From contig JAIPHX010000002.1 of NCBI GenBank assembly GCA_021734995.1, positions 80,189 to 144,188 on the forward strand: 64,000 nucleotides of DNA, read 5' to 3'. The notes under the pieces are model-generated. The model saw nothing but the letters and a program-made list of their open reading frames with translations, had not been told where the DNA came from and did no database searches. A program made the translations under genes and the position numbers. This stretch comes from Minisyncoccota bacterium (lineage in GTDB: Bacteria > Patescibacteriota > Minisyncoccia > Phycocordibacterales > UBA9973). This document shows positions 8,368 to 55,722 of the stretch, one piece after another (within the stretch, counting starts at the first letter, position 1; each line of letters starts with the position of its first letter).

Positions 8368-10296
8368 TTATTGTATCACCCTATCTCCTGTAGGGGGGAA
8401 AGAAGGATCATTGGATAATCTAGTATTTAAAGAAGACTTATTGATCCTTACTCCTACATTAGCAAAATCATCCTGTCCCGTAAAGATGGTATCATTTATC
8501 AATGTTGGTGGTGTCCCAAGCTGGGAAAGTGATGGTAAAAGTTCTATCTGAAAACTAACCTCCCTACTTGAGCCCGTCACGCCAATTCCGCGCATCAATG
8601 TTCCAATATTCCAAACTATTTCTTTAGTAGAAGGATTGTAACTCAAGTCTTCAGATGGTGGAGAAACTGGGCCTACAAAGCTAGCCCAAGGAGGAAGTGA
8701 TGTTTTTACTTGAGCTCGTGAGATATTGTTGGCAGTATTGGATAGAGACCACACCACAGTATATGTAGTCTTTTGTTCTACTCTTGGTGGAATAGGACCA
8801 GAATTTTTAAATGCTCCAGAATAATATAATATTTTTGATACAAATCCTGCTTCGGTTATAATACGAATATTTTTTGATTCAGAGTTTTTTAGTTCATTTA
8901 TAGCATAACCATCAGAAGCTTGCCTACCTGCAATAGATACTTCTATGTTTATAGATGGATCAGACAATATACCATTTGTTCCACCAAGCAATGCTAATGG
9001 AGAAAGAGAGAAGCTAACATATCCAGATTTTCCAGGAGGTATGTCAGCAAACTCTTTTAGAGAATTTTTATCCCATACAATAGTATCTTGGGCAGAATTA
9101 TAAAAACCATCTTTCACTTCAATTTTTGATTCGTCTAAAGCATTTCCAGAAAGCTTGGCTCTTATCTGCATATCTGAAATTTTTGTATCCATATTGTTTA
9201 CCCATTTTATTTCTCCTTGTAATTTTGACTTAGTATCTACCGCATATTCATTCTGATAAACACCATTTATAAAAAGATTGGCTGCGATGAACGGCTTTTT
9301 AACAAACACTGTATGGCTTAGGGAATTAAAGACAGTGCCTATCTCAGTCTTGTCTACTAGATTTTCAGAACCACTCCAAACTTTAAAGTTCTTTTCTTCC
9401 CCATCATAAACATCCACCATCTTACCAGTCAAAGTGATTTCTTTTTCTCCTCCTGGAGGTAAATCTCCTAAATTCCAAATATTATTACCAATCACAGGAG
9501 AGGGTCTTGCTGATTGGAATTGAAAACCTACAGGATAGTCTATTTTTATAATCATTCTCTGCACAGATCTTGTCGCATTAAGTTGTGCTTTTATTCTCAA
9601 GGAAATATCTTGATTTGGACTAATCTCCTTTGGTCCTTCTACTAAAATATTTACTGGAGTAGAGCTAATAGACACTTCATATGGTTTTTCTTTTACAAAG
9701 ATAGCATTAGAACCTGCTACTCTATATTCAAGTAAAAATTTAATAGGTTTAATACTTCCCTGTTCTCCAAAAAGCACTACTTTTATATTCTCATTTTTTA
9801 CTCCACCAGAAGGAATACTTCCTAAAGAAACACGCAATTTTTCTGTATCTTTATTAAGGTCAGAAGAAGCACTTCTTGGATATTCCACAAGCAAATCAGC
9901 CAACTCTAGAGCAGAGGTGTTGCGATTGATAATTTCTATTTGAAGAGGCAATTCCTCCCCTCCTCCTGTGAAAGCATTACCCAGCACGGATATTTCAATA
10001 TTTTCATTTGAAATAGTATTTCCTTTTCCAACAAAGTTATAAAAGGCAAAAACAGAAGCAAGTACAAAAAATATTATTGAAAATATAAAGAATTTTTTAA
10101 AGATTGAAGTTTGCATAAATATTTTTTCTGGCAAAAGAAATTTTTTATCTTCTTTATCCCAAGTATCCGAAACTTTATGCTCCAAACTATCATGATGAAA
10201 TTTCATATCACTACGAATTTTCATTTCATAATTTTTACTGTAAAGTTTGGTTTTTAAATCTTCAAGTCTGTTCAGTTTTTCTGAGTCTCGCGCCAT
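8368..10296 (-). CDS. Hypothetical membrane-anchored protein with large extracytoplasmic domain
   Basis: 642 aa; ~65-aa cytoplasmic N-terminus, single TM (FFIFSIIFFVLASVFAFY), Ser/Asn-rich beta-like remainder; 4 nt upstream of glyQS. Confidence 0.55.
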   Translation of the reverse strand: MARDSEKLNRLEDLKTKLYSKNYEMKIRSDMKFHHDSLEHKVSDTWDKEDKKFLLPEKIFMQTSIFKKFFIFSIIFFVLASVFAFYNFVGKGNTISNENIEISVLGNAFTGGGEELPLQIEIINRNTSALELADLLVEYPRSASSDLNKDTEKLRVSLGSIPSGGVKNENIKVVLFGEQGSIKPIKFLLEYRVAGSNAIFVKEKPYEVSISSTPVNILVEGPKEISPNQDISLRIKAQLNATRSVQRMIIKIDYPVGFQFQSARPSPVIGNNIWNLGDLPPGGEKEITLTGKMVDVYDGEEKNFKVWSGSENLVDKTEIGTVFNSLSHTVFVKKPFIAANLFINGVYQNEYAVDTKSKLQGEIKWVNNMDTKISDMQIRAKLSGNALDESKIEVKDGFYNSAQDTIVWDKNSLKEFADIPPGKSGYVSFSLSPLALLGGTNGILSDPSINIEVSIAGRQASDGYAINELKNSESKNIRIITEAGFVSKILYYSGAFKNSGPIPPRVEQKTTYTVVWSLSNTANNISRAQVKTSLPPWASFVGPVSPPSEDLSYNPSTKEIVWNIGTLMRGIGVTGSSREVSFQIELLPSLSQLGTPPTLINDTIFTGQDDFANVGVRINKSSLNTRLSNDPSFPPTGDRVIQ

Positions 10297-12484: not shown

Positions 12485-15400
12485 CTAAATTTTATTTATT
12501 TCTATTTTAAAGACCATTTCTCCTACAGATATTTGTTCTCCATTATTTTCTGCAAAAGATAATTCTTTTGCTCCTGCTGTCTTTTGTAAATCTTCTTGAA
12601 ATAACTTTATAAGCTCCATTCCTTGAGGATCTGTCTGGACCTTTATAGCCACAACATCACTCGGCACAAGATTTATTTTCTTTCGAAGATCCTGTACTGC
12701 TCTCAAAAACTCTCTATAGTCTCCTTCTTTTTTTAACTCACTGGTAATTTTAGTATCCAAAAAGAAAGACTCTGTTTGATTTAAATCCACTAAAATATCT
12801 TTTATATTTAATTCATCTTTTATTAATTCATTGTATTCTTCAGAAAGAGTATAATTTTTCAACACAATCTTACTCAAAGGCTGACGCACTTTTATCCCTG
12901 CCTTTTGTCTTGCCTCAAAACCAAGAGAGACAGTATCGCGGACGGTATCCATATTGGCCAATACCTTTTCTCTTTCTTTCCCTACTCCAAAAAAATTAAA
13001 GAATCGTGTCATCCACTCTCCATCAACTCTTGGCCATTCAGTCAAATGAATACTTTCTGGTTCATTTTCATTTTTTAGAGAAAGCCATATTGACTCAGCA
13101 GAAAATGGAGCAAACGGAGCCAATATCTTTGCAAAATTTTTCAAAACAAAATACAAAGTTTGTTTTGCTTCCAACTCTCCATCTTTAATACGTTCTCTAG
13201 AGCGACGCAAATACCAAGTAGATAATTCATCTACAAAATTTTCAAAGGGTTTGATAGCTTTATTCATATCATATTCTTCCATCCCGCTTGTCACTTCTTT
13301 TATACATTTTCTCAATCGTTCTACAATCCAAATATCTAAAACATTTTTAGAATCTCCACACAAAGCTTCTCCATTTAAATCTGCAAAGGTTTTTTCTAAA
13401 TCCCTATCACGGTACAACTCATAAAAAGCTAAAACATTAAAAAGTCTCCCCACAATCTTGCTAGATATATCTTGCACTGCTTTTTCAGAAAAATCAGCAT
13501 CTTCTCCTTTCATTAAAGGACCAGCCAAAAGATACATACGCAATGCGTCTACCCCATATCTATCAAACAAAATCCAAGGATCTTCAAAATTACCTTTAGA
13601 TTTAGACATTTTTTGTCCATCTTCTGCTCTTACTGTCCCTGTTGTCACAACATATTTAAATGGTGCATGATCAAATAAAATAGAAGATACTACGTGAGTA
13701 TAATAAAACCAAGTACGGGTCTGAGCGATGTATTCAGCCACAAAACCTGCCGGAAAATTATTTTTCTTCCAATCTTTATTGGAAAATGGAAAATGATCTT
13801 GAGCAAAAGGCATAGAGCTGGATTCAAACCAGCAATCAATCACCTCTGTGATCCTTTGCATTTCCGCTCCACAGTCACATATAAGAGTAATATTATCTAT
13901 ATATGGTCTATGCAAATCCAACTCTCGAGCTTTATTGTGTGGCAGTGGAACAAAATCAAGCGCTCGTATTTCTGCATTATTAAAATAATCAAAACTTTCA
14001 GATTGCATATTGAACTTTTCTTGTTCAAAACCACCTGCAATCATATACATTGCTTGGACAGTATCTCCATGAGAAACAAATACAATATTTTCATTTTTGT
14101 ATTTGTCTTCAAAGTCATATAGAAAATCCCCCACCCTTTCAAAAAGTTCTTTTTGAGATTCTCCTCCCTCTGGATCTGCCAAAAATCTATCTTTTTGATC
14201 TTTGAAAAACTGATGATAATACTCAATGGATTTTCCTTCAAAAATACCCATATCAATCTCTCTGAGTCTTGGTTCAAAAATAATATTTTCTTTTTTAAAT
14301 CCAATAGTATCAGCTAAAATCTCTGCTGTCTCTCTAGCCCTTGGTAAATCAGAAGATACAATCATTGTAATCTTTTTGTCTTTCAAAATCGGGGCAGAAT
14401 TTTTAACTTGCTCTTTCCCTTTTTCCGTAAGAAAATTTTTAAAATGTGGGTCAGAATCAACATAAAACTTTTGATTACTATCTGCCTGCCCATGACGCAT
14501 TACAAAATATTTATTACCAGACTTTTTCCCTTTCTTTTTTAAATCTTCTAAAGAAGAGACGAAGTGTTGTTTTTCACATTTGGTGCATTTCCATACTGGT
14601 AGTGGAGAAGCAAAATATCTATTGCGGGAAATGTTCCAATCGGGAGCATTGTCTACAATATTTTTAAATCTTCCATCTTTTAAATGAGCTGGAACCCAAG
14701 ACATGTATTTTGCGTTTTTAATAATACTGTCTTTTGTTTTATTGATATTGATAAACCAAGAAGGGAGAGCGTAGTAAATAATAGGAGTATCGCAACGCAT
14801 ACAGTGAGGATAAGAGTGATTTATCTTTTCTTTGGCAAAAAGCTTGTTGTTGTGAGCTAGATATTTAACAATCTCAACATCTGTCACTTGGTGACCGTCT
14901 TTTTCTACAGCTTTTGGCTTTACAAACATCCCTGCAAAATCCAAAACTTCTTTTTTAAATTTACCAGTCTCATCTACATGCAAAATCCATGGTATTTTAT
15001 TTGCTCTAGCCAAATCCATATCTTCTTCTCCAAAAGCTGGAGCTTGGTGAGCAATGGCTGTTCCTTTGTCAGTAGTCACAAAATCAGCATGCCAAATCTG
15101 CCAAATATTTGGTTCATTTTTCATAGATTCTTCGTAATATGAAAACACAGGAGTATATTTTTTACCAATCAAATCAGCTCCTTTCAGCTCTCCTAGCTTT
15201 TCGTATTTGTTTTGTTCATTTTTAGAATTATTTTCAGTATTACTTGCAGAAGCATTGGATTGTAGTATTTTTTCAAAATATTCTTTTGAAACTATATACA
15301 CATCCTCTTCCCCGTTTTTACGGAACTTTATATAATCAAAATCTTTATTTACCACGATAGCAGTATTGCCTGGAAGGGTCCAAGGAGTAGTTGTCCATAC

Positions 15401-16087
15401 TATAAGGTATGTATTTTTTTCTTCCTTAAGGGCAAATTTTGCATAGACAGAAATATCAGCTATGTCTTTATAACTATTGTCCATCGCAATCTCAGAGTTG
15501 GCAATCGGGGTCTCACATCTAGCACAATACGCCAATACTCTTGTTCCTTCATAAATCAAATCTTTTTTATTCATTTCAGACAAAGCCCACCAGACAGATT
15601 CCATAAAAGAATTGTCCATAGTCTTGTATCCTCCATCAAAGTCTACCCACCTACCAATACGTTCTACTGATTTTTTCCATTCAGAAGCATAAGTAAGTAC
15701 TTTACTTTTTGCATACTCTGTAAATTTATCTATCCCAAGCTTCTCTATCTCTTGATGCCCTGCAATACCTAGATCCTTTTCAACAATATTTTCTATAGGC
15801 AAACCATGACAATCCCATCCCCATTTTCTAGGAACATAATATCCTTGCATGGTCTTGTATCTACCAATGGTATCCTTAACTGTACTACCCAAAATATGAC
15901 CATAATGCATAAGCCCTGTAGCAAAAGGAGGACCATCATAAAATACATAATGTCCTTTTGGAGACTCTTTTTTTAGACTTTTTTCAAAAGTATTATTTTC
16001 ACGCCAAAACTCTAAGATCTTTTCTTCTCTTTCCGCATTTTCAGATTTTATATTTTCCTTTTGAACTTCTTTGTTTTCTTCTGTCAT
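12485..16087 (-). CDS. ileS: Isoleucyl-tRNA synthetase with embedded histidine-phosphatase-like insertion
   Basis: 1200 aa; HYGH (HIGH), WGWDCHGLP, editing-domain TTTPWTLPGN, HSYPHCMRCDTP, KMSKSKGN; extra ~220 aa between PLPVWKCTKCEKQ and LHRPYIDN. Confidence 0.95.
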   Translation of the reverse strand: MTEENKEVQKENIKSENAEREEKILEFWRENNTFEKSLKKESPKGHYVFYDGPPFATGLMHYGHILGSTVKDTIGRYKTMQGYYVPRKWGWDCHGLPIENIVEKDLGIAGHQEIEKLGIDKFTEYAKSKVLTYASEWKKSVERIGRWVDFDGGYKTMDNSFMESVWWALSEMNKKDLIYEGTRVLAYCARCETPIANSEIAMDNSYKDIADISVYAKFALKEEKNTYLIVWTTTPWTLPGNTAIVVNKDFDYIKFRKNGEEDVYIVSKEYFEKILQSNASASNTENNSKNEQNKYEKLGELKGADLIGKKYTPVFSYYEESMKNEPNIWQIWHADFVTTDKGTAIAHQAPAFGEEDMDLARANKIPWILHVDETGKFKKEVLDFAGMFVKPKAVEKDGHQVTDVEIVKYLAHNNKLFAKEKINHSYPHCMRCDTPIIYYALPSWFININKTKDSIIKNAKYMSWVPAHLKDGRFKNIVDNAPDWNISRNRYFASPLPVWKCTKCEKQHFVSSLEDLKKKGKKSGNKYFVMRHGQADSNQKFYVDSDPHFKNFLTEKGKEQVKNSAPILKDKKITMIVSSDLPRARETAEILADTIGFKKENIIFEPRLREIDMGIFEGKSIEYYHQFFKDQKDRFLADPEGGESQKELFERVGDFLYDFEDKYKNENIVFVSHGDTVQAMYMIAGGFEQEKFNMQSESFDYFNNAEIRALDFVPLPHNKARELDLHRPYIDNITLICDCGAEMQRITEVIDCWFESSSMPFAQDHFPFSNKDWKKNNFPAGFVAEYIAQTRTWFYYTHVVSSILFDHAPFKYVVTTGTVRAEDGQKMSKSKGNFEDPWILFDRYGVDALRMYLLAGPLMKGEDADFSEKAVQDISSKIVGRLFNVLAFYELYRDRDLEKTFADLNGEALCGDSKNVLDIWIVERLRKCIKEVTSGMEEYDMNKAIKPFENFVDELSTWYLRRSRERIKDGELEAKQTLYFVLKNFAKILAPFAPFSAESIWLSLKNENEPESIHLTEWPRVDGEWMTRFFNFFGVGKEREKVLANMDTVRDTVSLGFEARQKAGIKVRQPLSKIVLKNYTLSEEYNELIKDELNIKDILVDLNQTESFFLDTKITSELKKEGDYREFLRAVQDLRKKINLVPSDVVAIKVQTDPQGMELIKLFQEDLQKTAGAKELSFAENNGEQISVGEMVFKIEINKI
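13922..14587 (-). other. In-frame domain insertion within ileS: histidine phosphatase (PGAM/His_Phos_1-like) module
   Basis: aa ~501-722 of IleRS: YFVMRHGQADSN (RHG catalytic motif) ... VFVSHGDTVQAM (second His motif), flanked on both sides by canonical IleRS sequence. Confidence 0.6.
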
Positions 16088-19909: not shown

Positions 19910-20494
19910 ATGAAGAAAAAGAAAGATGCTCTGCCAAAACATATCTGGGATGTTTTTTATAGATTTAAAAAAATGAAGAAAGGTGAATTGATTGAAAATG
20001 GCTCCAAAAAAATAGGGACTAAAATTTACATTTATAGACATATCAAAAATACCATGTCTACCCCAAAAAAAGTATATTTTTCTCATTTAACAATAAAACA
20101 TATGGCAGAAAAAAATATATTAGGTGAAAAATTATTAAAAATAACTCCAAAGATTTTATTAAAACCAGATGAAATTAGACATGGGATCAAAAAAGATAGA
20201 CTAATTTTTATCAAAAACACAAAGACGACTTCTCACGCAAAAAATACAGCAGTGGTCATTGAATCCAAAACAAAAAATACCTGTATTGTTGTCACAATAT
20301 TCCCCACAAACAAAAAATACCTTGAGAAATTTGAGTTACTGTGGAGGACGCCGGCACCAAATGGTGTTCCCTCCATGCGGCAACACTTCAAAGAAGTGGC
20401 TCGCGGCAAGCGATTTCCCGCTCATACAGCAACTCAAAGCTCTCAAAGTACTAAATCCAGTATATCAAAATTAAAACAAAAAGGTCAAGAATAG
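19910..20494 (+). CDS. Hypothetical protein, paralog B of duplicated family
   Basis: 194 aa; see paralog A. Confidence 0.6.
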   Translation: MKKKKDALPKHIWDVFYRFKKMKKGELIENGSKKIGTKIYIYRHIKNTMSTPKKVYFSHLTIKHMAEKNILGEKLLKITPKILLKPDEIRHGIKKDRLIFIKNTKTTSHAKNTAVVIESKTKNTCIVVTIFPTNKKYLEKFELLWRTPAPNGVPSMRQHFKEVARGKRFPAHTATQSSQSTKSSISKLKQKGQE

Positions 20495-29652: not shown

Positions 29653-29665
29653 TTATTGATTATAA

Positions 29666-29703
29666 CAAAAAAACCTCCCAAAAAATAGAGAGGTTTTTTT
29701 TGT
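29666..29703. terminator. Hairpin flanked by A-run and T-run downstream of the giant surface protein gene
   Basis: aaaaaACCTCccaaaaaatagaGAGGTttttttttt. Confidence 0.5.
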
Positions 29704-29721
29704 TAAAAATTTCTTTTTATT

Positions 29722-32700
29722 TTATTGTTCTTTGTATGTTGGCTTTTTTGCTGTTCCTCCATCTTCAGTAACATTAAGGGTGACACTTTTTGGAGCAAAC
29801 CGAGTTCCTTCTCCAGTACAATACAAAGTGTATACATGTTGACCTTCTGTCTGAAATGGACCAACAAGGGAACTCCCCTCTGTTGCTCCCTTTGTATCAA
29901 AACCATCTCCATTACACTCTATAGCATTCATAGAAGACCAAGAAAGAGTAGAAGTGGCATCAAAAGCAATCCAAGAAGGACTCACAGAAAGACTGGAAGA
30001 ATATATAGTTTCTCCTTTTTTACAAATTTCTTCTTTGTCATCCCAATAAAGGTTACTTGCACAATCTGCTGAAGCATTACTTGTGTCTAACTCCACTCCA
30101 TTGTGATACAAGAAAAACCCATATGTTTCTTTTTTTACTGAATATTTTACCTTTGTACCAGAAGTATCTGTTGAGACTACAGTATTGCGAGGAGGATTCA
30201 CAGTAACAGCAGTATCCGCTTCTGCGGTTAGATTACCAGTAGACCAAGTCAAAGAAATATCACAACTTCCGCTGTTTTCTTGAATAATACAACCTGTCGC
30301 AGAAAGGTTCCCAAACGGCACTCCGGCTTCTCCAACATTTACGCTTACCCAAGCTCCACAGTTGTTGGTTTCATCTGATTCTGTGATTTCCCCATTATTA
30401 TCACTAGAAGATTTATCGGCACATACTCGGATCCAATAAGATCCATTATTGTCAAAAGTATGTTGTTTTGTAATACTTTGATTTGTTCCCGCAGAAAGAG
30501 ATGATATTTGAACAGAAGAAAGGTCTGTGATATTCCCTTCAGCATTATCTGGATTATGATCTGCTACTTGGAAAAAGTTTGGGAAAGCAGTAGAGATGTT
30601 TGCACTACCAATGTTTGAAATACTTCCAGAAAGATTGGCTACTTGTTCTGCAGAGAAATTTGTTGGCCCTGTATAGCTAGCAGTAAGGTCAGGAGAAGGG
30701 CCAACTTTTACAGAAATACTACCCCAACCAGAACAGTTGTTGTTTTCTAGAGATTCTGTTATTTTCCCATCATCACCACTATTTTTCTTGTCTACACAAG
30801 CTCGGAGCCAATATGTTCCCACAGCATTAAATGTATGACTTGTAGTCATTGTTTCAGAACTATTTACTCCTAAATTTTTAAAATCATAAGAAGTAAGATC
30901 TGTAATTGCAGCAGTTTCTCCTCCTCCTTGAGCATTCGCTACTTTAGCGAATGAATTATATGAACTATTCCCTTGTCCAGAAGGGGCACCTATTCCTTCT
31001 TCTCCACTAGGATCAGGATTTATGGCTGAAACTTGCATAAATCCATCAAAACCACCACCTGTAGCTTTTAATCCTTGGTTTGTAGCGACAGCTGTAAGAT
31101 TTAATGCTTGATTTACTGTAGCTTCTTTTGGAGAAACACTACTTATCACAAGATCAGGCATTGGATTATCTGCTAAAGCTATTGTAGTCCAAGCCCCACA
31201 GTTATTTCCTTCATCTACTTCAGTAATTGTCCCTGCACTATTTCTATTTTCTTTATCTACACAAAGACGCATCTTATATCCACCTTCAGAATATGCTCTT
31301 AAATCAACATTACTTAAATTAATTAACTTCTCCTCTCCTGCATTCAAAGCATTTACATCAAAACTTGGAAGATCAACCTCTATTAATGCATTTACTATTT
31401 GTGCTCCATGTTTAAAAGCTGAAAGGGGTAATTCTTGTAATTGCAAAAATGCCTTGAAAGATGCTCCTGTAGCTACTCCACCAATATTTTTTACACTTGT
31501 ATTTATTGATGCATTTGGTCCAATTTGAAAAGTCGTAGGGCTGATACCCCCAGGAATAAGATCAGGAAGGGACCCGATGACAATTTTAGAATATGGATGG
31601 CTACAGTTATTGTCTTCATCTGACTCCACTATGCGTCCTAGATCTAAAATATTTTGTTTATCAGTACAAACCCGCACCCAGTATGTACCGGATTGAGTAA
31701 AGGTATGGTTTACATCTACAGTCAAAGATCCCCCTGGTGCAAGTGGTGGCTTTGCCACTGCTGGTGTTGAGTATGGGAATTGAGAGCTTGTCTGCGCGTT
31801 TACCTTTTTTGTGTTTTTAGTTAACTTCGCTAAAATATTTTCTTTTACACCTCTCTGTTGGGTCAGCTCTGGATTTGAGCTTGGGTCTTGATCTGTTATT
31901 TGGAAAAAGGAATTAAAGCTAGCACCTGTGGTTTCTCCTCCAATGTTTTTAACAATAGCAGAAAATTTTACTGGTTTATTTATAGTAGAAGCTGTAGGGG
32001 TGAATGTTACAGGGTCTGGGCGAAGATCTGGGGGGATTTTAACATCAATAACCAAACTATTACTTAAAATATTATTATTATCTTGGTCTTTACCCTTAAT
32101 ATTAAAAGTGATTTTTCCTGATCTTGAGGATAAATTTTTAGTCAGAACAACACCATTAACAGGACCTGAAAAATCAGGAGTACTATACCCAGAATTAACA
32201 TTCATACTTGTTGGATTATAATTAAATATATTATGTTCTATATCAGAGACACCTAACTTTTCTAGATTAAAACTAAGTACTTCAGAATTTTGGTTCGAAA
32301 ATGTAATTTTCTTTTCACTACTTACTGGTGTATTAGAAACCCCTCCTGTCCCAGTATTAACATTACCACTCCAATTAATTTTTAAATAAGGAGAAGCGGG
32401 TGTTTCTAATACATGAATTTTTGCATATCCTACAGTTTTGTATTCAGGAAATTCAGATTCAACTCCTTGAACTCGCAAAGTATAATCCCCGGCAGTAGTT
32501 GTGGGCAGAGAAACAATATTTACTGCTGTTGTCCCTAAAGAAATATTAAATTTTTTGACGGTAGAAGGGTTTTTACCGCTTACCTCTATAGCATTAATAC
32601 AACCATTTTGTTGACAATCTCCTTGAAATAAGCTTACATAGTCTGAATATGTATTCACTTGATTTCCATTTTTCTTTACTAAATTAAACATAAAAGACTC

Positions 32701-33624
32701 TCCAATAGAGATTGTTTTTGGTTCTGGAGACAACACAATACATAGAGGACAATCCACTTTTATAGTTGCTGTCTTAGATAACCCATACGGAGAAGTAAAG
32801 GTAACAGAACGTTCATAAGGAAAAGTAGATACTTTTTGACTCAAAAGACTTTCTTTAATTTTCATACATTTAAGTGGTTCTTCTTGTGGATTATTATTAA
32901 AATAACAATTCACAAAAGGCAAATCAAAAATATCACCCAAGTTCTGACCAGTAACATTAGCAGTATGACTAATATTAGGACCTTCTTTTATTAAAAATTT
33001 TATTGTTTCACCTGGAGTTGTATTATAAAATGAAGGGGCTACCATTAACCCTGATGGGTGTGCGGTAACTGTTACAGGTAAGTCTATCTCTTTTTGACCC
33101 AACTTAATCTGATCCCCTCTCCAAGCACGTTTGTAAGCTTTTACTTTAAAGGTAAATGTTTCAACTTGAGTAACTGTGCTATTCATTTTTAGTGAAAAAC
33201 CTTCCACATTACCATTAAAGATGGTAATGTTACTTGGTTTATTTTCAGTAACTAAATTACCATTATTTAATACAAAAACAATATCACACCCTGTTATTAT
33301 TGTCCCATTATTATTTGTTACCCCGTAACCATATTTTTCGCAAGATACTGCAGTATTAGGAGGAGTACCAGTACATTCATCGTATCCAGATACATCACAA
33401 CCCACTGAGTCATTAAGAAAATTCGTTAATTCCGGCCCTGGATTTGGTGTTTGAATAAACAAATACTGTTCATAGGAAGAACCAGTTCCATATTGCATAT
33501 TTGCACTTCTTGGATAAATCCCGACACCACCATCACCACCACCCACTGCATAAACAGGGGTAAAAAAAGATAAGCTAAAAACAAAACAAAACACTAGAAA
33601 GATATATTTTATATATTTAGACAT
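29722..33624 (-). CDS. Giant secreted/cell-surface protein with four CARDB-like repeats
   Basis: 1300 aa; signal peptide/TM MSKYIKYIFLVFCFVFSLSFFTPVYA; four ~100-aa repeats starting PDL(I/R/V/T)..., each with N(I/Q)G and a terminal E(S/V)DE.NNC(G/S)W, i.e. the CARDB signature. Confidence 0.8.
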   Translation of the reverse strand: MSKYIKYIFLVFCFVFSLSFFTPVYAVGGGDGGVGIYPRSANMQYGTGSSYEQYLFIQTPNPGPELTNFLNDSVGCDVSGYDECTGTPPNTAVSCEKYGYGVTNNNGTIITGCDIVFVLNNGNLVTENKPSNITIFNGNVEGFSLKMNSTVTQVETFTFKVKAYKRAWRGDQIKLGQKEIDLPVTVTAHPSGLMVAPSFYNTTPGETIKFLIKEGPNISHTANVTGQNLGDIFDLPFVNCYFNNNPQEEPLKCMKIKESLLSQKVSTFPYERSVTFTSPYGLSKTATIKVDCPLCIVLSPEPKTISIGESFMFNLVKKNGNQVNTYSDYVSLFQGDCQQNGCINAIEVSGKNPSTVKKFNISLGTTAVNIVSLPTTTAGDYTLRVQGVESEFPEYKTVGYAKIHVLETPASPYLKINWSGNVNTGTGGVSNTPVSSEKKITFSNQNSEVLSFNLEKLGVSDIEHNIFNYNPTSMNVNSGYSTPDFSGPVNGVVLTKNLSSRSGKITFNIKGKDQDNNNILSNSLVIDVKIPPDLRPDPVTFTPTASTINKPVKFSAIVKNIGGETTGASFNSFFQITDQDPSSNPELTQQRGVKENILAKLTKNTKKVNAQTSSQFPYSTPAVAKPPLAPGGSLTVDVNHTFTQSGTYWVRVCTDKQNILDLGRIVESDEDNNCSHPYSKIVIGSLPDLIPGGISPTTFQIGPNASINTSVKNIGGVATGASFKAFLQLQELPLSAFKHGAQIVNALIEVDLPSFDVNALNAGEEKLINLSNVDLRAYSEGGYKMRLCVDKENRNSAGTITEVDEGNNCGAWTTIALADNPMPDLVISSVSPKEATVNQALNLTAVATNQGLKATGGGFDGFMQVSAINPDPSGEEGIGAPSGQGNSSYNSFAKVANAQGGGETAAITDLTSYDFKNLGVNSSETMTTSHTFNAVGTYWLRACVDKKNSGDDGKITESLENNNCSGWGSISVKVGPSPDLTASYTGPTNFSAEQVANLSGSISNIGSANISTAFPNFFQVADHNPDNAEGNITDLSSVQISSLSAGTNQSITKQHTFDNNGSYWIRVCADKSSSDNNGEITESDETNNCGAWVSVNVGEAGVPFGNLSATGCIIQENSGSCDISLTWSTGNLTAEADTAVTVNPPRNTVVSTDTSGTKVKYSVKKETYGFFLYHNGVELDTSNASADCASNLYWDDKEEICKKGETIYSSSLSVSPSWIAFDATSTLSWSSMNAIECNGDGFDTKGATEGSSLVGPFQTEGQHVYTLYCTGEGTRFAPKSVTLNVTEDGGTAKKPTYKEQ

Positions 33625-33699
33625 TTGATTAATTTAATTAAATTGATTATATTAATTATATCTTTTTTTAAATATTTATACAAGTAAAAAGATCCCTAA

Positions 33700-33735
33700 A
33701 AATAAAAACCGCACAATTTTGTGTGGTTTTTATTT
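33700..33735 (-). terminator. Rho-independent terminator after secreted-paralog gene 1
   Basis: AACCGCACAA(tt)TTGTGTGGTT (one G.U pair) followed by a T-run. Confidence 0.55.
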
Positions 33736-33751
33736 TTCATCTTTATATCAC

Positions 33752-34489
33752 TTATTGAGTCAGTAATGGTTTCAATTTCCCTGGATATTCTTGAACCTCA
33801 ACATATGCATGGTTGGTCATCTCATTATTATCCAAATTTATACCAATCTTCTTTACTTTCTTCCCTGCAGGAATAGGCCAATAATGTGTTTGCCAATCAT
33901 TAGTTAAAATTTTTCTTGAACCACCATAGATATCAAACCCACCTCCATAATAAGAAAGAGCTACTGTTATTGCCCCCTCCCCTCGTACAGTTAATGGAAC
34001 TTGATTTCCTGAAATAGTTACATATTTGTTGAAAGTACCTTGAAAAGATTGCAACTGATTCGGCTCAAAACCTTGTTTTTCAATAATATTGTTTGCATAA
34101 TTTATATTTCTATTTTCTGACCTTCTTGAAATTAAAACATTATTATTTTTTTCAAAATTAAACTTATTAGTTAAATTTATATCACTTCTTTTTGATCCAG
34201 TTAATCTACTTGTGTCGTAATTTCTTTCATTATCTACACTAGATAATCTGTTTAACGGCAAAACATCTTTTATGTTTTTTGTAATATCCTCACCAACAAC
34301 AGTAGCTCTTGTATTTAAATTTAATAAGTGCAGACTAGAAAGTCTAAAAGTGCTGTCCACATACCCTTGCAATAACATAGATTCTGGTAAGTAGCCAGAA
34401 AACTCCCACCCACTCGCCTCCACCTTCTCCGCAAAAGAGAAAGATGCGACTAAAGCTAGGGACAAAATTGTTAATATTATTTTTTTCAT
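33752..34489 (-). CDS. Secreted hypothetical protein, paralog family member 1
   Basis: 245 aa; Sec-type signal MKKIILTILSLALVASFSFA; C-terminal block GNQVPLTVRGEGAITVALSYYGGGFDIYG...WPIPAGKKV...TNHAYVE shared with 35410-36021. Confidence 0.6.
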   Translation of the reverse strand: MKKIILTILSLALVASFSFAEKVEASGWEFSGYLPESMLLQGYVDSTFRLSSLHLLNLNTRATVVGEDITKNIKDVLPLNRLSSVDNERNYDTSRLTGSKRSDINLTNKFNFEKNNNVLISRRSENRNINYANNIIEKQGFEPNQLQSFQGTFNKYVTISGNQVPLTVRGEGAITVALSYYGGGFDIYGGSRKILTNDWQTHYWPIPAGKKVKKIGINLDNNEMTNHAYVEVQEYPGKLKPLLTQ

Positions 34490-34798
34490 TTTTTTATAAT
34501 TAGTCTATTAAAATATAATTTATGTTTTAATGATTAAAGTTAATTGATAAACTTTTCGCACATTTCGCACAAATAGTACTTATATAATATCTACTTAGTA
34601 GTATACCACAAATAAAATAAAAAAGCAATTAGCAAGCCTAAAAAGTGGATAGCCTGTGGATAACTTTTTGGGGCTAAAATAGCCTTACCTTATAAGGGTT
34701 TTATAGATACAGAAAATAAAAAAATATAAACATTTGATACTGAGACAAAAATAAAAAACCATCCATACGGCGGTTTTTTATTAATTTAGAAATCTAAA

Positions 34799-35398
34799 TT
34801 ATTGAGTAATTAATCCAGGAGATTTTAATTGGATATAAGGGCTTTCTAATGTTCCTCTATTACTTAATTCTAAAACAATAGTTGTAATTGTGGCATTTGG
34901 TTTAACAGGATATGTGTATGTTCTCCAATTTGGAGTCAAAACGGCTCCTTGACCAAAAGCTATAAATCCACCATCGGAATAAGCAAGGGCAAAATTAACT
35001 CTTCCTTCCCCTTTTACTGTAAAAGTAATAGTATTTTGTTGTAAATTAACTTCTTGTACAAATTTTGTAGCAAAATCAACAACTTGAACATCTTCAGGAT
35101 TGTTTTGGTTCCCTATTTTAGAATCTGTGTTTACTGTTGATCTTAAATCATTTGAACGAGAAATAGCAGTAAGAGCATTTAGTGGAGGATCCCCTACTTG
35201 CTTTGCATGCAAAGCAACATATTTATTACTAGGTATTACCCACCCTTTTATTATAGCCCCTGGAGGAAAAGACATGTAATTAGCAAAATACCAACTACCT
35301 CCTTTACCTGAATATGGTTCTGCTTTAGCTGTATCTCCAAACAAAGGAGAAAAAGCTACCGCTAGAAACAAAATTGTTATGTATATTATTTTTTTCAT
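34799..35398 (-). CDS. Secreted hypothetical protein, divergent member of same family
   Basis: 199 aa; signal peptide; TFTVKGEGRVNFALAYSDGGFIAFG block aligns with the paralog core. Confidence 0.55.
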   Translation of the reverse strand: MKKIIYITILFLAVAFSPLFGDTAKAEPYSGKGGSWYFANYMSFPPGAIIKGWVIPSNKYVALHAKQVGDPPLNALTAISRSNDLRSTVNTDSKIGNQNNPEDVQVVDFATKFVQEVNLQQNTITFTVKGEGRVNFALAYSDGGFIAFGQGAVLTPNWRTYTYPVKPNATITTIVLELSNRGTLESPYIQLKSPGLITQ

Positions 35399-35409
35399 CT
35401 TTATACTAC

Positions 35410-36021
35410 TTATTGTTCTAATAATGGTTTCAATCTGTCTGATTGTTCTTTAATCTCAACATATGCATGATTAGTTTGATAATTGTTTTGCAAATTTATA
35501 CTTATCATACTAACTTTTTTACCTGCAGGAATTGGCCAATAATATGTTTTGAAATCACTTGTTAAAACTTTTCTTAAAGTACCATATATTGTAAAGCCTC
35601 CATTTTGATAAGACAAAGTAACTACAATAGCACCTTCTCCTCGTACAGTTAAAGGAACTTGATTTCCTGAGACAGTTACATATTTATTGAAATTACCTTG
35701 AAAACTCTCAAAGTTGTTAGGCTCAAATCCTATTGCATTACTAATATTAATTGCATGGCCAGTGGTTCTATCTACATACCTTTTTATTGTTGAAACACTG
35801 TTTCTGTGACTATCAATCAAAGATGCGCCACCTCTTCTTGTATCAATTCTTTCTAAATGCAGACCAACAATTCGAGAGGACACATTCTCTATGTGTTGAT
35901 TTATTATAAAATTTTCTGGAAAATAACCAGCAAACTCCCACCCACTCGCCTCCACCTTATCCGCAAAAGAGAAAGACACCACTAAAGCTAAAGATAGGAT
36001 TGTTAATATTATTTTTTTCAT
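35410..36021 (-). CDS. Secreted hypothetical protein, paralog family member 3
   Basis: Start moved to MKKIILTILSLALVVSFSFA (ORF track begins 24 nt upstream at 36045); ~70% identical to member 1 over the C-terminal 100 aa. Confidence 0.6.
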   Translation of the reverse strand: MKKIILTILSLALVVSFSFADKVEASGWEFAGYFPENFIINQHIENVSSRIVGLHLERIDTRRGGASLIDSHRNSVSTIKRYVDRTTGHAINISNAIGFEPNNFESFQGNFNKYVTVSGNQVPLTVRGEGAIVVTLSYQNGGFTIYGTLRKVLTSDFKTYYWPIPAGKKVSMISINLQNNYQTNHAYVEIKEQSDRLKPLLEQ

Positions 36022-36280
36022 ACTTTTCACATTTTTCATATTCATTTATGTTTGTTAATCTAACACACATTTTAAAATATGTAAATCGCCTGTGATAATG
36101 TGCACACACATATGGTGGTTAATTAAGACTGCCATATCTATGCGAATTTATACACATTACCTTCGTATCCCCCTCCCCATAAAGCCCTTGCATTATGTTT
36201 TCACATATAGTACTATATATAGCATACAAGTCCTGCACCGAAGGGGCTTTTTTTATTTAAAATAACACACAATTAAATAT

Positions 36281-38293: not shown

Positions 38294-39109
38294 ATGAAAA
38301 CAAAAAATTATTCACGCATATTATCACTCGCTTTGGTTTTAGTTTTTTCTTTGGCTTTTAGCCAAGTAGTATTAGCAGAAAGTTCAAATCCACTTTCTCC
38401 AAGTCCAAGACCTCTTCCTCCTGTAAAACCAGAAAGGAAAGAAATTAAAGACAAGTTTGAAATTGAAAAAAAAGAACTTAAAGAAGAAATGAAGGCAGAA
38501 AAAGACGAAGTTAAAAAATTACTAGATGAGAAGAAAGAGAGCATCAAAACTGAAATGGAAGCAAAGAGAGAAGCTGTCAAAAATGCAATGGAATTAAAAA
38601 GAGAAGAAATCAAAAAGAATCTAGAAGTTAAAAGAGAAAACTTGAGAGAAAAATTTGAAGACAAAAAACCAAGTTTAGTTAATAGTTTAAAAGAAAAAAT
38701 AGCTGGTAATGATGATAAAAAACCTGAAGCTCCTGCTGTACGAGTAGCTTTCAATTTTGGAACAGTAGCTGAAAATTTAGCCAAAATTGCAGATAGAATA
38801 AATTCAAGAATAGATACAGTAGAAGAATTAGGAGCAGATGTTTCTGTTTCAAGAGAATTTATGACTTCAGCAGAGACTAGTCTTGCAAAAGCTATGGGCT
38901 ATATATCAGAACTAAAAACAAATGTTGACACAAAGACCGCAAACATGGAACAAGCAAAGACTTTAGCAAAATCAGCAAAAGAAGCATTAAAAGAAGCTCA
39001 TGGTTACATGAGAAAAGCATTAGAGAGCTTAAAAACAAAAGCTTCTGAAGTAAGGAAAAGTGTTACCTCAAGTTCTGCAGAAGTCGCTCCAAGCGCTGAA
39101 GTAGAATAA
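38294..39109 (+). CDS. Secreted K/E-rich coiled-coil protein
   Basis: 271 aa; signal peptide (ILSLALVLVFSLAFSQVVLA); heptad-like KEEMKAEKDEVKKLLDEKKESIK repeats. Confidence 0.55.
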   Translation: MKTKNYSRILSLALVLVFSLAFSQVVLAESSNPLSPSPRPLPPVKPERKEIKDKFEIEKKELKEEMKAEKDEVKKLLDEKKESIKTEMEAKREAVKNAMELKREEIKKNLEVKRENLREKFEDKKPSLVNSLKEKIAGNDDKKPEAPAVRVAFNFGTVAENLAKIADRINSRIDTVEELGADVSVSREFMTSAETSLAKAMGYISELKTNVDTKTANMEQAKTLAKSAKEALKEAHGYMRKALESLKTKASEVRKSVTSSSAEVAPSAEVE

Positions 39110-39511: not shown

Positions 39512-40600
39512 ATGATACAAATAAAAATAAATAAACTACCAAAAAGTGAATTGGAGATAGAGGCACAATTAGAAGCAAATGTATTAGAGGCACTCTTTCC
39601 AAAAGCGCTAAAGAATATTAGTGAAAATATTGAAATGGACGGATTTCGTAAAGGAAAAGTCCCAGAAAATATCATTTTATCCAAAGTTGGAGAATTAGCG
39701 ATTTTAGAAGAAGCAGCAGAAATAGCGATCAATGAAAATTATCCAAAGATCCTAGAAGAAAACAAGATAGATGCTATTGGTAGACCTTCTATTACAATCA
39801 CCAAAATAGCTCGCAATAACCCATTGGAATTTAAAATAAAGACAGCTGTATTGCCTGAAGTAAATCTTCCAGACTATAAAAAAATATCCCAGAAAACTAT
39901 CAGTGATATAAGTGCTGAAGATAAAAATATTGAGGTATCTGACCAAGAGTTAGAAAACACCATAATGGATATTCGCAAATCTCGTGCTCCAAAAATCAAC
40001 ATGCAAGACATAGCAAAGAAAGATGAACCAACAGAGGAGAATAAAAATACAGAAGAAGTAAAACTCCCAGAAGTGGAGCTTCCAGAATTAAATGATGACT
40101 TCGTCAAAGCTCTAGGGCCATTCAAAGATGTAGCAGATTTTAGAGAAAAGCTAAAAGAAAATATCAAGCTTGAAAAAATAAACCAAGCACGAGAAAAAAC
40201 ACGCTTGAAAATCATAGAAGCAATCATAGAAAAAACTGAAGCAGAAATACCTGAAGTATTGATAGATTCTGAACTAGAAAAGATTCTCTATAGAATGGAG
40301 ACAGATATCAGCGCAATGGGTTTAAAATTTGAAGATTATCTTGTCCATATCAAAAAAACCAAAGAAGACTTACGCAAAGAATTTAGACAAGATGCAGAGA
40401 AGAAAGCAAAGTTTTCTCTTGTTTTGTTTGAAATCTCTAAACAAGAAAATATAAAAGCAGATACAGAAGAAGTAGCAAAAGAAGTAGCTCATATCCTAGA
40501 ACACTACAAAGATGCTGACCCTGACAGAGCTCAAATGCATGCTGAAAATGTCTTGACCAATGAAAAGATTTTCCAATTTTTAGAGAATCAGGGGAAGTAA
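39512..40600 (+). CDS. tig: Trigger factor lacking the PPIase (FKBP) domain
   Basis: N-terminal ribosome-binding domain with GFRKGKVP signature; C-terminal chaperone arm present; no FKBP block; sits upstream of clpP. Confidence 0.8.
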   Translation: MIQIKINKLPKSELEIEAQLEANVLEALFPKALKNISENIEMDGFRKGKVPENIILSKVGELAILEEAAEIAINENYPKILEENKIDAIGRPSITITKIARNNPLEFKIKTAVLPEVNLPDYKKISQKTISDISAEDKNIEVSDQELENTIMDIRKSRAPKINMQDIAKKDEPTEENKNTEEVKLPEVELPELNDDFVKALGPFKDVADFREKLKENIKLEKINQAREKTRLKIIEAIIEKTEAEIPEVLIDSELEKILYRMETDISAMGLKFEDYLVHIKKTKEDLRKEFRQDAEKKAKFSLVLFEISKQENIKADTEEVAKEVAHILEHYKDADPDRAQMHAENVLTNEKIFQFLENQGK

Positions 40601-40659
40601 AAACACTATTCTATTAAAAAGAGAAGGGCTATACTTATATGACCAAATAACTTCCATCG

Positions 40660-40965
40660 CTACACTAGCTCTATTTTTTTACCTAAGGCTTTGGATATTT
40701 TATACAAAGTACCTAAAGAAAAACTATGCTTTCCACTTTCTATACGAGAAATAAAGGATTGTGGTAATTTTGTCTTTTCAGCAATAGTTTTTTGTGTCAT
40801 TTTCTTTTGAATGCGCGTATTTCTAATTTTTTTTACTAAGTACAAACGAGAAATCTCTTCATAGTAAACTTTTTGATAGAATTTTGATTTTGAAAATTGA
40901 TCAAAAACATCTTTACTAGAATAAAGCTTTAGCGGACTTTTGATTTTTTTATTTTTTTTAATCAT
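40660..40965 (-). CDS. XRE-family HTH antitoxin (HigA-like)
   Basis: MTQKTIAEKTKLPQSFISRIESGK helix-turn-helix; directly downstream of, and overlapping by 4 nt with, the toxin-like gene. Confidence 0.7.
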   Translation of the reverse strand: MIKKNKKIKSPLKLYSSKDVFDQFSKSKFYQKVYYEEISRLYLVKKIRNTRIQKKMTQKTIAEKTKLPQSFISRIESGKHSFSLGTLYKISKALGKKIELV

Positions 40966-41270
40966 ATATTATATTTAATATACTTATATACTTTCTCCAT
41001 TTGAAATAAATAACTTTTCGGGGTTTTGGATGTCTTCTTAATAAAAATATAAATAAAATATATATTTTTATCTTTCACAAAGAAAACCAAGCGGTATCTT
41101 TTTACAATCAATTCTTTAATCTCTCCTTTTAGTTTTTTAGTATAAACAACCCTGAAATCTCCCTCTTCTAAGAAACTAATAGAAGCGTGTATTTTTGCTT
41201 GATCTGTTTCTGGTAATTGTTTTATAAACAAAGAAACCTTTTCGGTAAAAAAAGAATTATACATTTTCAA
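40962..41270 (-). CDS. RelE/ParE-superfamily toxin (HigB / Gp49-like)
   Basis: 102 aa; KKLKGEIKELIVKRYRLVFFV...IYIFIKKTSKTPK resembles the HigB/Gp49 (K.L.G.L.ELR...YRI.YF...H.F.KK.QKTP) family; toxin-first order typical of higBA. Confidence 0.6.
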   Translation of the reverse strand: MKMYNSFFTEKVSLFIKQLPETDQAKIHASISFLEEGDFRVVYTKKLKGEIKELIVKRYRLVFFVKDKNIYFIYIFIKKTSKTPKSYLFQMEKVYKYIKYNI

Positions 41271-41310
41271 AATAAATATTTTATAATGAAAATTAAATCT
41301 TTCTGTTTAG

Positions 41311-41332
41311 AGTATATCAATATTGATATACT
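41311..41332. promoter_or_regulatory. Perfect 22-bp palindrome in the higBA promoter region (candidate antitoxin operator)
   Basis: AGTATATCAAT|ATTGATATACT, 41-62 bp upstream of the toxin start codon. Confidence 0.5.
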
Positions 41333-41479
41333 AGTGTCAAATATAAAAAAATCAATTATATATAAATATTGTAAATAAGTTGTAAATTAAGTATATATAT
41401 CAATAAAACATGAGGTCTGAGAAGTCTCCTGTATGGTAGACGCGTACAGGAAATTGATTTTATTTCCAAAAAAAGTATA

Positions 41480-42088
41480 ATGAACATTATGTTAATACCC
41501 ACAGTAATAGAAAAGTCCCAGTTTGGTGAAAGAGCTTATGATATATACTCTCGTCTTTTGCGTGAGCGTATTATCTTTCTTGCAGGACCAATAGATGACC
41601 ACACTGCCAACATTGTCATCGCACAGCTTTTATTTCTAGAGTCTGAAGATTCAAAAAAAGACATCAGCTTTTATATCAACTCCCCTGGAGGATCAGTCAC
41701 TTCTACTCTTGCTATTGTAGATACTATCAATCACATTAGACCAGATGTAGCTACTTTTTGTGTAGGAATAGCAGCTTCCGGAGCAGCGATCATATTATCT
41801 TCTGGTAAAAAAGGAAAGAGATACATTCTTCCAAACGCAGAAGTTATGATTCACCAGCCACTTGGAGGAGTAGAAGGACAAGCTACTGATATTGCTATCA
41901 CAGCAAAACACATTTTAAAGACAAGAGAAAATCTAAACAAAATGCTTGCAAAAAATACCGGTAGACCTGTAGGCCAAATAGAAAAAGATGTAGAGAGAGA
42001 TTTCTTTATGGACGCTGAAGAAGCAAAAAAATACGGGATTATAGATGAAATAGTCACGAAATCCAAAGCTACAAGTTCTAGCAAGTAA
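41480..42088 (+). CDS. clpP: ATP-dependent Clp protease proteolytic subunit
   Basis: [29 protein letters not shown] motifs; 202 aa. Confidence 0.95.
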
Positions 42089-54714: not shown

Positions 54715-55722
54715 CTATTTTCTACTATGAAATTTTTTATGCACCTCTCTCAAAGCTTTATCAGTGAAGTGAGTATATACCTGAGTGGTCGAAATATTTG
54801 CATGTCCAAGCATTATTTGAACGCTACGAATATCTGCACCGTTAGAAAGTAAATCTGTAGCAAAAGAGTGTCTTATTACATGCGGTGTAACTTTTTTTGA
54901 AATCCCTGCTTTTATAGCATAGTATTTTACCAATCTTTCTATGGACCTAGTAGTAAGTCTGGTCGGAGCTTTTTGAGAAGCACTTTTGTTTTGTTTTTTC
55001 TTTTCACCATTTCCCTCTTTTCCATCTTTTATTTTTTTATTACTTTGGTTTTTTTCTTCTTTCGCGCCAAACCTATTTGGAATATTTACAAACAAGGCTT
55101 CTTCCATATCTTTTCTTTTTGCTAAATATTCTTTGATTACTTTTTTAGCACTATCTGACAAAAAAACTACCCTGATTTTTTCTCCCTTGCCTCTTATGGA
55201 AAATTCATCTTTAGACAAATCTAAATCTCTATTCAAAGAAACAAGCTCGGAGACACGAAGACCTGTAGAAAAAAATAATTCTAAAATTGCTTTATCTCTC
55301 AGATCTTTTAAATCATTTCCGTCTGGTCCTGCGAGCAACCTCCCAAGCTCCTCTACGCTTATCAAATCCAATCCCCTTTCTTTTGTTTTTGCTAGTTCTA
55401 TTTTATCTGGAGCAATAGCTTGTATCCCTCTTTTATTTAAAAATTTTAAAAAAACTCGCAAAGCAATCAAGTAATAATTCTGCGTATTTTTCTTCATAGT
55501 GCTTTCTGTCTGCCCACGAACCTTTGCTCCTTTTTGTCTATTTAAAAATAATCTAAACTCTCTAATCTTATCTTCAGAAATATCTCTAGGAGAATTTACT
55601 CCTGAAAATTCAAAAAATCTTGTAAGGTATCTTTCATAATTAGCAACAGTTTTTAAGCTTGAGCCTTTCTCAATCTCTAAATATTCTAAAAACCCTCTTT
55701 TTAACTTATCCATTTCTTTCAT
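54715..55722 (-). CDS. Tyrosine recombinase XerC/XerD family
   Basis: N-terminal SAM-like domain; catalytic R...HVIRHSFAT...LGHANISTTQVYTH; lysine-rich low-complexity insert. Confidence 0.85.
   Translation of the reverse strand: MKEMDKLKRGFLEYLEIEKGSSLKTVANYERYLTRFFEFSGVNSPRDISEDKIREFRLFLNRQKGAKVRGQTESTMKKNTQNYYLIALRVFLKFLNKRGIQAIAPDKIELAKTKERGLDLISVEELGRLLAGPDGNDLKDLRDKAILELFFSTGLRVSELVSLNRDLDLSKDEFSIRGKGEKIRVVFLSDSAKKVIKEYLAKRKDMEEALFVNIPNRFGAKEEKNQSNKKIKDGKEGNGEKKKQNKSASQKAPTRLTTRSIERLVKYYAIKAGISKKVTPHVIRHSFATDLLSNGADIRSVQIMLGHANISTTQVYTHFTDKALREVHKKFHSRK

Follow-up and report, generated by a model that had tools for sequence, protein, structure and literature searches.

Do four neighbouring genes for exported proteins of a narrow bacterial lineage belong to a common extracellular system, and what would such a system do? 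This question is raised by an island flanked by tpiA and nusA in a metagenome-assembled genome assigned to Candidatus Pacebacteria (Candidate Phyla Radiation (CPR)/Patescibacteria), within a stretch of 64,000 nucleotides of contig JAIPHX010000002.1 (G+C about 33%), hereafter the window. The island comprises one large gene, G, and three small ones, P1, P2 and P3. The four open reading frames (ORFs) are all on the minus strand, with the boundaries already assigned in an earlier note that had been drawn from the DNA letters, and their products are identical to hypothetical proteins within K9L98_01455-K9L98_01470. The locus is real, lineage-specific and unannotated.

CPR/Patescibacteria live attached to other microbes, and the means by which they recognise their partners are largely unknown. 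Lineage-specific exported proteins are obvious candidates for this function. The interpretation developed here, which we hold with about even confidence, is that the island encodes four Sec-exported, beta-rich extracellular proteins, G being a surface-contact protein and the products of the small genes being binding proteins. The analysis supports the earlier note in its general view of the locus as an extracellular or surface one.

A large secreted protein with four CARDB repeats

The product of G begins with a signal peptide (aa 1-26) and a beta-rich region (aa 27-531). Four CARDB repeats follow, and then two C-terminal domains (Table 1). Its single hydrophobic window is located at aa 3-29. 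The CARDB identity, which the earlier note had proposed by eye, is borne out by profile searches. Indeed, the whole protein matches PF07705 with 107 bits (E 6.3e-31) and all four repeats, when scored individually, exceed the Pfam gathering score of 22.7 bits. Each repeat starts with a PDL motif, ends with an E.xE.NNC(G/S) box and carries a pair of cysteines spaced by exactly 21 residues. These boundary motifs are those already described; the length of about 100 aa given with them has to be corrected to 118-149 aa, because the repeats contain variable inserts. Identity among the four repeats is 32-34%, and a profile made from them matches G at exactly four places and has no other match in the window.

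Within the immunoglobulin (Ig) folds, CARDB is placed in the E-set clan, and a single domain, PF1109 of Pyrococcus furiosus, has been solved (PDB 2KL6; PMC8416519). From this family membership, the repeats of G are assumed to be Ig-like E-set beta-sandwiches (PMC8416519). CARDB domains sit in tandem in large secreted proteins, with many archaeal and bacterial examples (PMC8416519). G resembles these proteins, with its four domains above model threshold arranged in tandem in a large secreted protein. It differs from them by the rest of the chain (aa 27-531 and 1096-1300), which falls in no family, and by repeats that have long variable inserts and a conserved cysteine pair. The adhesion role of CARDB is a matter of name and annotation, not of demonstrated function, and no relevant literature was found on CARDB in CPR bacteria.

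Outside the repeats, no Pfam or NCBIfam model matches aa 1-531 or aa 1096-1300. The first of the two C-terminal domains (aa ~1105-1205) aligns with 26-33% identity to copies in the metagenomic protein P0006, of which there are at least four in tandem (E 9e-9 to 1e-4). In a word-index search of 5.8 billion protein clusters, no full-length homologue of G was found, P0006 being the only partial match besides the organism's own proteins. G would be a cell-surface or secreted multidomain protein with an adhesin or surface-contact architecture. In this protein, the four disulphide-stapled CARDB domains would probably form a stalk between the 500-aa N-terminal region and the two C-terminal beta domains.

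Three small paralogous exported proteins

P1 and P3 share 50% identity (E 9e-80), whereas P2 is more distant, with 26% identity to P1 (E 3e-17) and 31% to P3 (E 5e-21). By sequence comparison the three are true paralogs, as the earlier note had recognised. The C-terminal core motif that it gave for all of them fits P1 and P3; P2 is far more diverged. Their N-termini start with MKKII and show a K-rich n-region, one hydrophobic stretch and an AxA-like -3/-1 site, with predicted cleavage between VEA and S, AKA and E, and VYA and V. Sec-type signal peptides are thus predicted for the three proteins, in agreement with the previous reading. The start of P3 is called differently by NCBI (203 aa) and Logan (209 aa). 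No match to P1-P3 was found in Pfam, NCBIfam, PHROGs or PADLOC, so that the small proteins, as anticipated, have no recognisable family. P3, P2 and P1 are tandem duplicates of one small secreted protein.

A separate observation concerns the ends of these proteins. Similar short C-terminal tails are seen in P3 (LKPLLEQ), P1 (LKPLLTQ), P2 (PGLITQ), the metagenomic relative P0004 described below (LKPMRAE) and G (KKPTYKEQ). From the sequences, this could be due to chance or could correspond to a short C-terminal recognition tag.

Predicted fold of the small proteins

An AlphaFold model of full-length P3 made from the alignment of the three paralogs was unusable (predicted local distance difference test (pLDDT) 41) and was rejected. 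For mature P3, an alignment of four sequences gave a model of medium confidence, with a pLDDT of 58.8 overall and of 60-84 in the core. The model is all-beta, and its residues 36-79 (pLDDT <50) correspond to the variable, indel-rich region. When it was compared with the PDB using Foldseek, the top matches were a series of carbohydrate-binding modules (CBM70, CBM4-2, CBM61, CBM29, CBM16 and CBM32) and the FedF lectin, with E values of 2e-3 to 4e-2. Viral structural matches were tail-fibre and CenC-like carbohydrate-binding module (CBM) domains. Moreover, when the family profile was compared with PDB sequences, the CBM4-2 of Thermotoga Lam16A (1GUI) ranked first (E 0.09). The alignment, which spans the LT.dW.T..f and ..v..I..eL strands, is sensible over the conserved strands. 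The structure and profile matches, weak but convergent, point to a CBM/lectin-like jelly roll. Among the pilin, lectin and Ig-like folds that the earlier note had entertained for the core, the comparison yields weak lectin- or CBM-like beta-sandwich matches.

The closest comparison would be with CBM4/CenC-like modules such as 1GUI and the CBM4-2 of Rhodothermus marinus Xyn10A (1K42), which give the best, though weak, matches and share the predicted all-beta sandwich and the 'LT.dW.T..f' strand. Unlike these modules, the paralogs are free-standing secreted proteins and not parts of enzymes, they carry a disordered variable insert of 40-90 aa in mid-protein and they show no significant sequence match. 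These resemblances do not establish the small proteins as members of a CBM family. An aromatic carbohydrate-binding face could be formed by conserved W and Y residues (W28, Y138 and others), but their conservation is suggestive only. None of the outcomes that the earlier note had named as fatal to its reading (a core belonging to a well-characterised family of unrelated function, the lack of a CARDB match, the lack of signal peptides) was observed.

A possible picture of the small proteins may be drawn from these elements. The conserved N-terminal strands and the C-terminal core would probably fold jointly as a CBM4/CenC-like jelly roll, interrupted by the disordered, indel-rich variable insert. 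Such proteins would most likely bind a glycan or another surface polymer, either on a partner cell or on the cell's own envelope.

Distribution of the family

The small-protein family is nearly orphan and has a narrow distribution. Word-index searches with P3 and P2 recovered only the proteins of the source organism. When 1.84 billion representatives of about 15 billion proteins were searched exhaustively with a profile, one outside relative was recovered, P0004 (E 2e-23), and nothing was found in GTDB representative genomes or on IMG/VR contigs. P0004 is encoded on a 1.5-kb contig, L001, where a second, truncated paralog is found after a 274-nt gap. Two paralogs are therefore in tandem on L001, and the tandem layout recurs in a relative. 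The contig is too short to reveal any homologue of G. At the DNA level, the pattern of the conserved upstream region found nothing in the genome contig collection, which lacks the source genome too. Finally, the 90% clusters of housekeeping proteins contain the source organism only, so that the kinship of the L001 organism to it is not established.

Transcription units and the possible link between G and the small proteins

Since all four genes are on the minus strand, they are transcribed in the order P3, P2, P1, G, which places the small genes upstream of G, and not after it as the earlier note had it. Unusually large intergenic gaps had also been reported. This holds for the 309-nt gap between P2 and P1, which contains the P2 terminator, a promoter-like site for P1 and a pair of DnaA boxes; it does not hold for the P3-P2 and P1-G gaps, of 11 and 127 nt, respectively. 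A terminator-like hairpin followed by a U-run is found after P2, P1 and G (Table 1). Taken with the 11-nt gap between P3 and P2, these three elements define the units [P3-P2], [P1] and [G]. The notion of one functional unit finds no support in this division. The promoter-like site of P1 was missed by a consensus scan because its -35 element matches at only three of six positions.

These data give some weight to the view that the genes are neighbours only. G and the paralogs would then be independent members of a variable 'secretome' patch, the small proteins being structural components of the envelope or of a matrix rather than lectins. In line with this, each of the three transcription units has its own terminator and promoter-like site, comparison of the paralog profile with G using hhalign finds the core unrelated to any part of G, the sole outside relative shows two tandem paralogs on a contig too short for a G homologue, and the CBM evidence is weak. 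However, four lineage-specific exported proteins encoded on one strand between housekeeping genes go beyond the usual random placement, even though this is not proof. Independence of the neighbours appears possible but doubtful.

Several points weigh against the interpretation of the island as a set of cooperating surface-contact and binding proteins. Given the three separate transcription units, the small genes are tied to G by adjacency only, and there is no second genome with G beside the paralogs, so that a functional link is unproven. The signal peptides were judged by reading of the sequences only. A pattern search of G and P1-P3 found no cell-wall anchor (LPXTG with a C-terminal membrane segment), lipobox Cys or prepilin motif (G|F(T/S)L(I/L)E), and with no anchor found the proteins could just as well be released as surface-bound. 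The real activity of G may reside in its N-terminal 500 aa, which match no family. The structural matches are weak, with no Foldseek match at E <=1e-3 and template-modelling scores of 0.3-0.45, and the model derives from four sequences. In addition, a generic beta-sandwich would draw similar Foldseek matches, and with the threshold relaxed to E 1, the small proteins still match no CBM model of Pfam or NCBIfam.

The closest conceptual analogue of the locus would be the VARTIG system of Thermococcales, in which variability is attributed to recombination and for which a role in cell-cell recognition has been proposed (Makarova et al., 2021, PMC8416519). In both cases a large secreted CARDB-like Ig protein is encoded beside small, highly variable, lineage-specific genes (PMC8416519). 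The analogy is limited by the fact that VARTIG is archaeal, that its large gene is located upstream and encodes a hypervariable C-terminal Ig domain, and that its downstream genes are mutually unrelated (PMC8416519), whereas the small genes of the present locus are upstream, paralogous and separately transcribed.

Taken alone, the locus adds a further hypothetical cluster of surface proteins to a type that is familiar and common in CPR genomes, and it neither opens nor settles a major question. It offers a compact test set, with one multi-CARDB protein and three small, easily expressed and probably lectin-like paralogs built on a design of conserved core and variable insert.

Evolution of the paralogs

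The comparison of P3 with P1 by the Nei-Gojobori method gives ratios of nonsynonymous to synonymous divergence (dN/dS) of 0.06 in the signal peptide, 0.75 in the mature N-terminal part, 0.80 in the indel-rich middle and 0.34 in the C-terminal core. This pattern shows that the genes are maintained, with a constrained core and a front half that is nearly unconstrained or diversifying. In the interpretation favoured here, the small proteins would diversify quickly. When the window is compared with L001, the DNA is alignable only in the upstream intergenic regions and in the signal-peptide codons (82% and 74%), whereas the mature coding parts of the paralogs are not alignable as DNA. The synonymous divergence of the proteins exceeds 1 and the L001 paralog at the 'P1 position' is closer to P3 than to P1. 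Conserved flanks around unalignable bodies possibly reflect either strongly constrained flanks or replaced gene bodies.

Together with dN/dS values of 0.75-0.80 in the variable half, these observations bring to mind a cassette-type surface-variation locus. The paralogs would then be exchangeable variants of a single host-recognition protein whose mature parts are swapped or diversified among lineages, with the conserved upstream regions and the signal-peptide sequences as arms for recombination. Nevertheless, the comparison involves two loci only, from organisms whose relatedness is unestablished, and the conserved flanks could simply be constrained regulatory DNA. The layout of the locus is identical in four assemblies of the source population. 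Furthermore, dS along P1 and P3 is fairly even (0.55-0.77), and there is therefore no sign of recent gene conversion within this genome. On balance, cassette exchange seems unlikely.

A more elaborate scheme, which we regard as distinctly unlikely, combines this idea with the DnaA boxes located upstream of P1. The small proteins would form a cassette-like, rapidly diversifying, lectin-type partner-recognition family in an ultrasmall episymbiont. Their mature, ligand-facing parts would be swapped or hypervaried among lineages, and a tandem operator would put one copy under the control of DnaA, and hence of the cell cycle. If true, the cassette and its DnaA wiring would represent a new surface-variation or host-range mechanism for CPR bacteria.

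The earlier note had considered accessory, tip or decoy roles for the small proteins, beside G as an adhesin. A pilus or fimbrial locus of this kind, with the small proteins as pilins, tip or accessory subunits, is very improbable: the layout, with a large Ig-repeat protein beside small secreted paralogs, and the FedF fimbrial lectin domain among the weak fold matches would fit, but P1-P3 have no cysteine, second hydrophobic segment, lipobox, type IV prepilin motif or LPXTG, their core is unrelated to G, and no sortase, usher, chaperone or pilus-assembly gene is found in the window. More generally, no phage, defence, pilin, sortase or lipoprotein signature was found at the locus, where comparison of the proteins with PHROGs and PADLOC models gave nothing below E 0.02.

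A tandem DnaA-box pair upstream of P1

The earlier note had pointed to paired DnaA-box-like motifs in one of the gaps, and the pair is real. It combines one perfect TTATCCACA with a second box spaced by 11 bp. The window contains no other such pair (0.15 occurrences are expected at <=3 mismatches), and L001 shows conservation of the site. For single DnaA boxes, the window has 30 against 19.8 +/- 4.6 expected, close to the chance level. Exact copies of the extended motif AAAAAGTTATCCACAGGnTATnCAC are present in at least 120 unrelated metagenome contigs (L002-L121) from very different environments. They usually open an array of 2-8 GTTATCCACAG boxes, arranged head-to-tail with a period of 11 nt, and the architecture is strikingly uniform. 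These contigs, considered as candidate homologues of the locus, were rejected as such since they carry generic tandem DnaA-box arrays in unrelated organisms. Recurrence of the extended pair in these 11-bp-periodic arrays identifies it as a canonical tandem DnaA site.

DnaA is known to act as a transcription factor, for example at dnaA and nrdAB in Escherichia coli and at several operons in Bacillus subtilis. The pair shares with DnaA-box-regulated promoters a consensus box, a second box placed head-to-tail at 11 bp and a position directly upstream of a promoter-like site, an arrangement kept in L001. It differs from them in that the putative target is an exported orphan protein, and not a gene of replication or nucleotide metabolism. 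From its sequence and position, the pair is likeliest to be an operator for P1, and it may tie P1 expression to DnaA. As such, it would be a predicted example of a DnaA-box pair positioned as a promoter operator in a CPR genome.

Origins combine a cluster of several DnaA boxes with an AT-rich unwinding element, placed at the global minimum of the GC skew and usually beside dnaA and dnaN. The idea that the gap is a replication origin, with the gene spacing reflecting oriC, is scarcely credible and was rejected: the perfect TTATCCACA with its second box, a local minimum of the cumulative GC skew near 36 kb and the divergent gene orientation at 36.0-36.3 kb might recall an origin, but there are two boxes only, single boxes are near chance level, neither dnaA nor dnaN was found among the ORFs of the window, the pair lies at promoter distance from P1 and is followed by -35 and -10 elements, and the skew dip is local, since the skew falls again after 44 kb and the dip thus tracks an 8-kb block of plus-strand genes.

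Features of the locus and of its surroundings

The coordinates of the elements discussed are collected in Table 1.

Table 1. Features of the four-gene island, with positions in the window.
Feature	Position	Strand	Description
G	29722-33624	-	ORF for a 1300-aa secreted multidomain protein; annotated hypothetical, K9L98_01455
CARDB repeat 1	31585-32031	-	aa 532-680; 41.2 bits; PDL at aa 532; box at aa 667; Cys 653/674
CARDB repeat 2	31180-31566	-	aa 687-815; 28.6 bits; PDL at aa 687; box at aa 802; Cys 788/809
CARDB repeat 3	30715-31158	-	aa 823-970; 35.6 bits; PDL at aa 823; box at aa 957; Cys 943/964
CARDB repeat 4	30340-30693	-	aa 978-1095; 40.1 bits; PDL at aa 978; box at aa 1082; Cys 1068/1089
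C-terminal Cys-bracketed domain of G	30010-30312	-	aa ~1105-1205; in no family library
Last domain of G	29755-29991	-	aa ~1212-1290; ~80 aa
P1	33752-34489	-	245 aa; longest variable insert; K9L98_01460; own transcription unit
P2	34799-35398	-	199 aa; divergent; K9L98_01465; 11 nt downstream of P3, probably co-transcribed
P3	35410-36021	-	203 aa; alternative in-frame ATGs at 36039 and 36045
Terminator-like hairpin and U-run after P2	34750-34782	-	-13.8 kcal/mol; z -3.9
Terminator-like hairpin and U-run after P1	33698-33737	-	-17.4 kcal/mol; z -5.5; also in consensus scan
Terminator-like hairpin and U-run after G	29663-29705	-	-18.6 kcal/mol; z -4.6
Promoter-like site for P3-P2	36057-36085	-	TTTACA, 17-nt spacer, TAGATT with upstream TG; block conserved in L001
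Promoter-like site for P1	34600-34628	-	TTGCTT, 17-nt spacer, extended -10 TGgTATACT; conserved in L001; putative function
Promoter-like site for G	33655-33683	-	weak -35 TTGTAT, 17-nt spacer, perfect -10 TATAAT; putative function
Tandem head-to-tail DnaA-box pair	34644-34663	-	TTATCCACAGGCTATCCACT; 11-bp spacing; ~15 nt upstream of the P1 promoter-like -35
Conserved intergenic region P3-nusA	36046-36250		~82-85% identical to L001, far above adjacent proteins

The conserved region between P3 and nusA (within 36046-36280) shows folds on both strands (z -2.5 on the minus strand and -1.7 on the plus strand). The plus strand carries a promoter-like site (36071-36099) and, downstream of it, a terminator-like hairpin with a T-run (36228-36249), only about 30 nt ahead of the nusA ATG. 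Judged from its sequence, this plus-strand element could represent a leader or attenuator of nusA, or else a small RNA. Searches with Rfam over 29-37 kb, at E up to 1, gave only spurious matches, which fall on the P1 terminator.

Housekeeping genes are found on both flanks of the island: those for ComEC, RNase H, RecJ, PGK and TIM on one side, and those for NusA, inorganic pyrophosphatase, trigger factor, ClpP and RNase Y on the other. Just past nusA and ppa, an ORF on the plus strand (38294-39109) encodes a secreted K/E-rich protein of 271 aa, apparently coiled-coil, with a weak apolipoprotein-like match. It represents a further exported orphan near the locus, and its translation from the ORF start has no exact match in the protein collection. 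At a greater distance, a 642-aa protein (8368-10296, minus strand) has a weak match to the Ig-like repeat DUF11 (E 9e-6) and may be a second surface protein of the window. A Gp49-like toxin is paired with a helix-turn-helix antitoxin between the clpP and trigger-factor genes (window ~40600-41480; L122 4135-4739), and a PBECR2-type nuclease-like ORF is present at 19910-20494. A tyrosine recombinase (54715-55722, minus strand), with Phage_integrase and SAM-like N-terminal domains, resembles XerC/D, or else an integrase. A tRNA gene cluster is located at 60.2-61.6 kb. Finally, the minus-strand ORF at 12485-16087 encodes a 1200-aa isoleucyl-tRNA-synthetase-like protein with tRNA-synt_1 and Anticodon_1 domains, in which a full His_Phos_1 domain (PF00300, E 8.8e-34) is inserted at aa 528-693, within the synthetase body, an unusual insertion or fusion.

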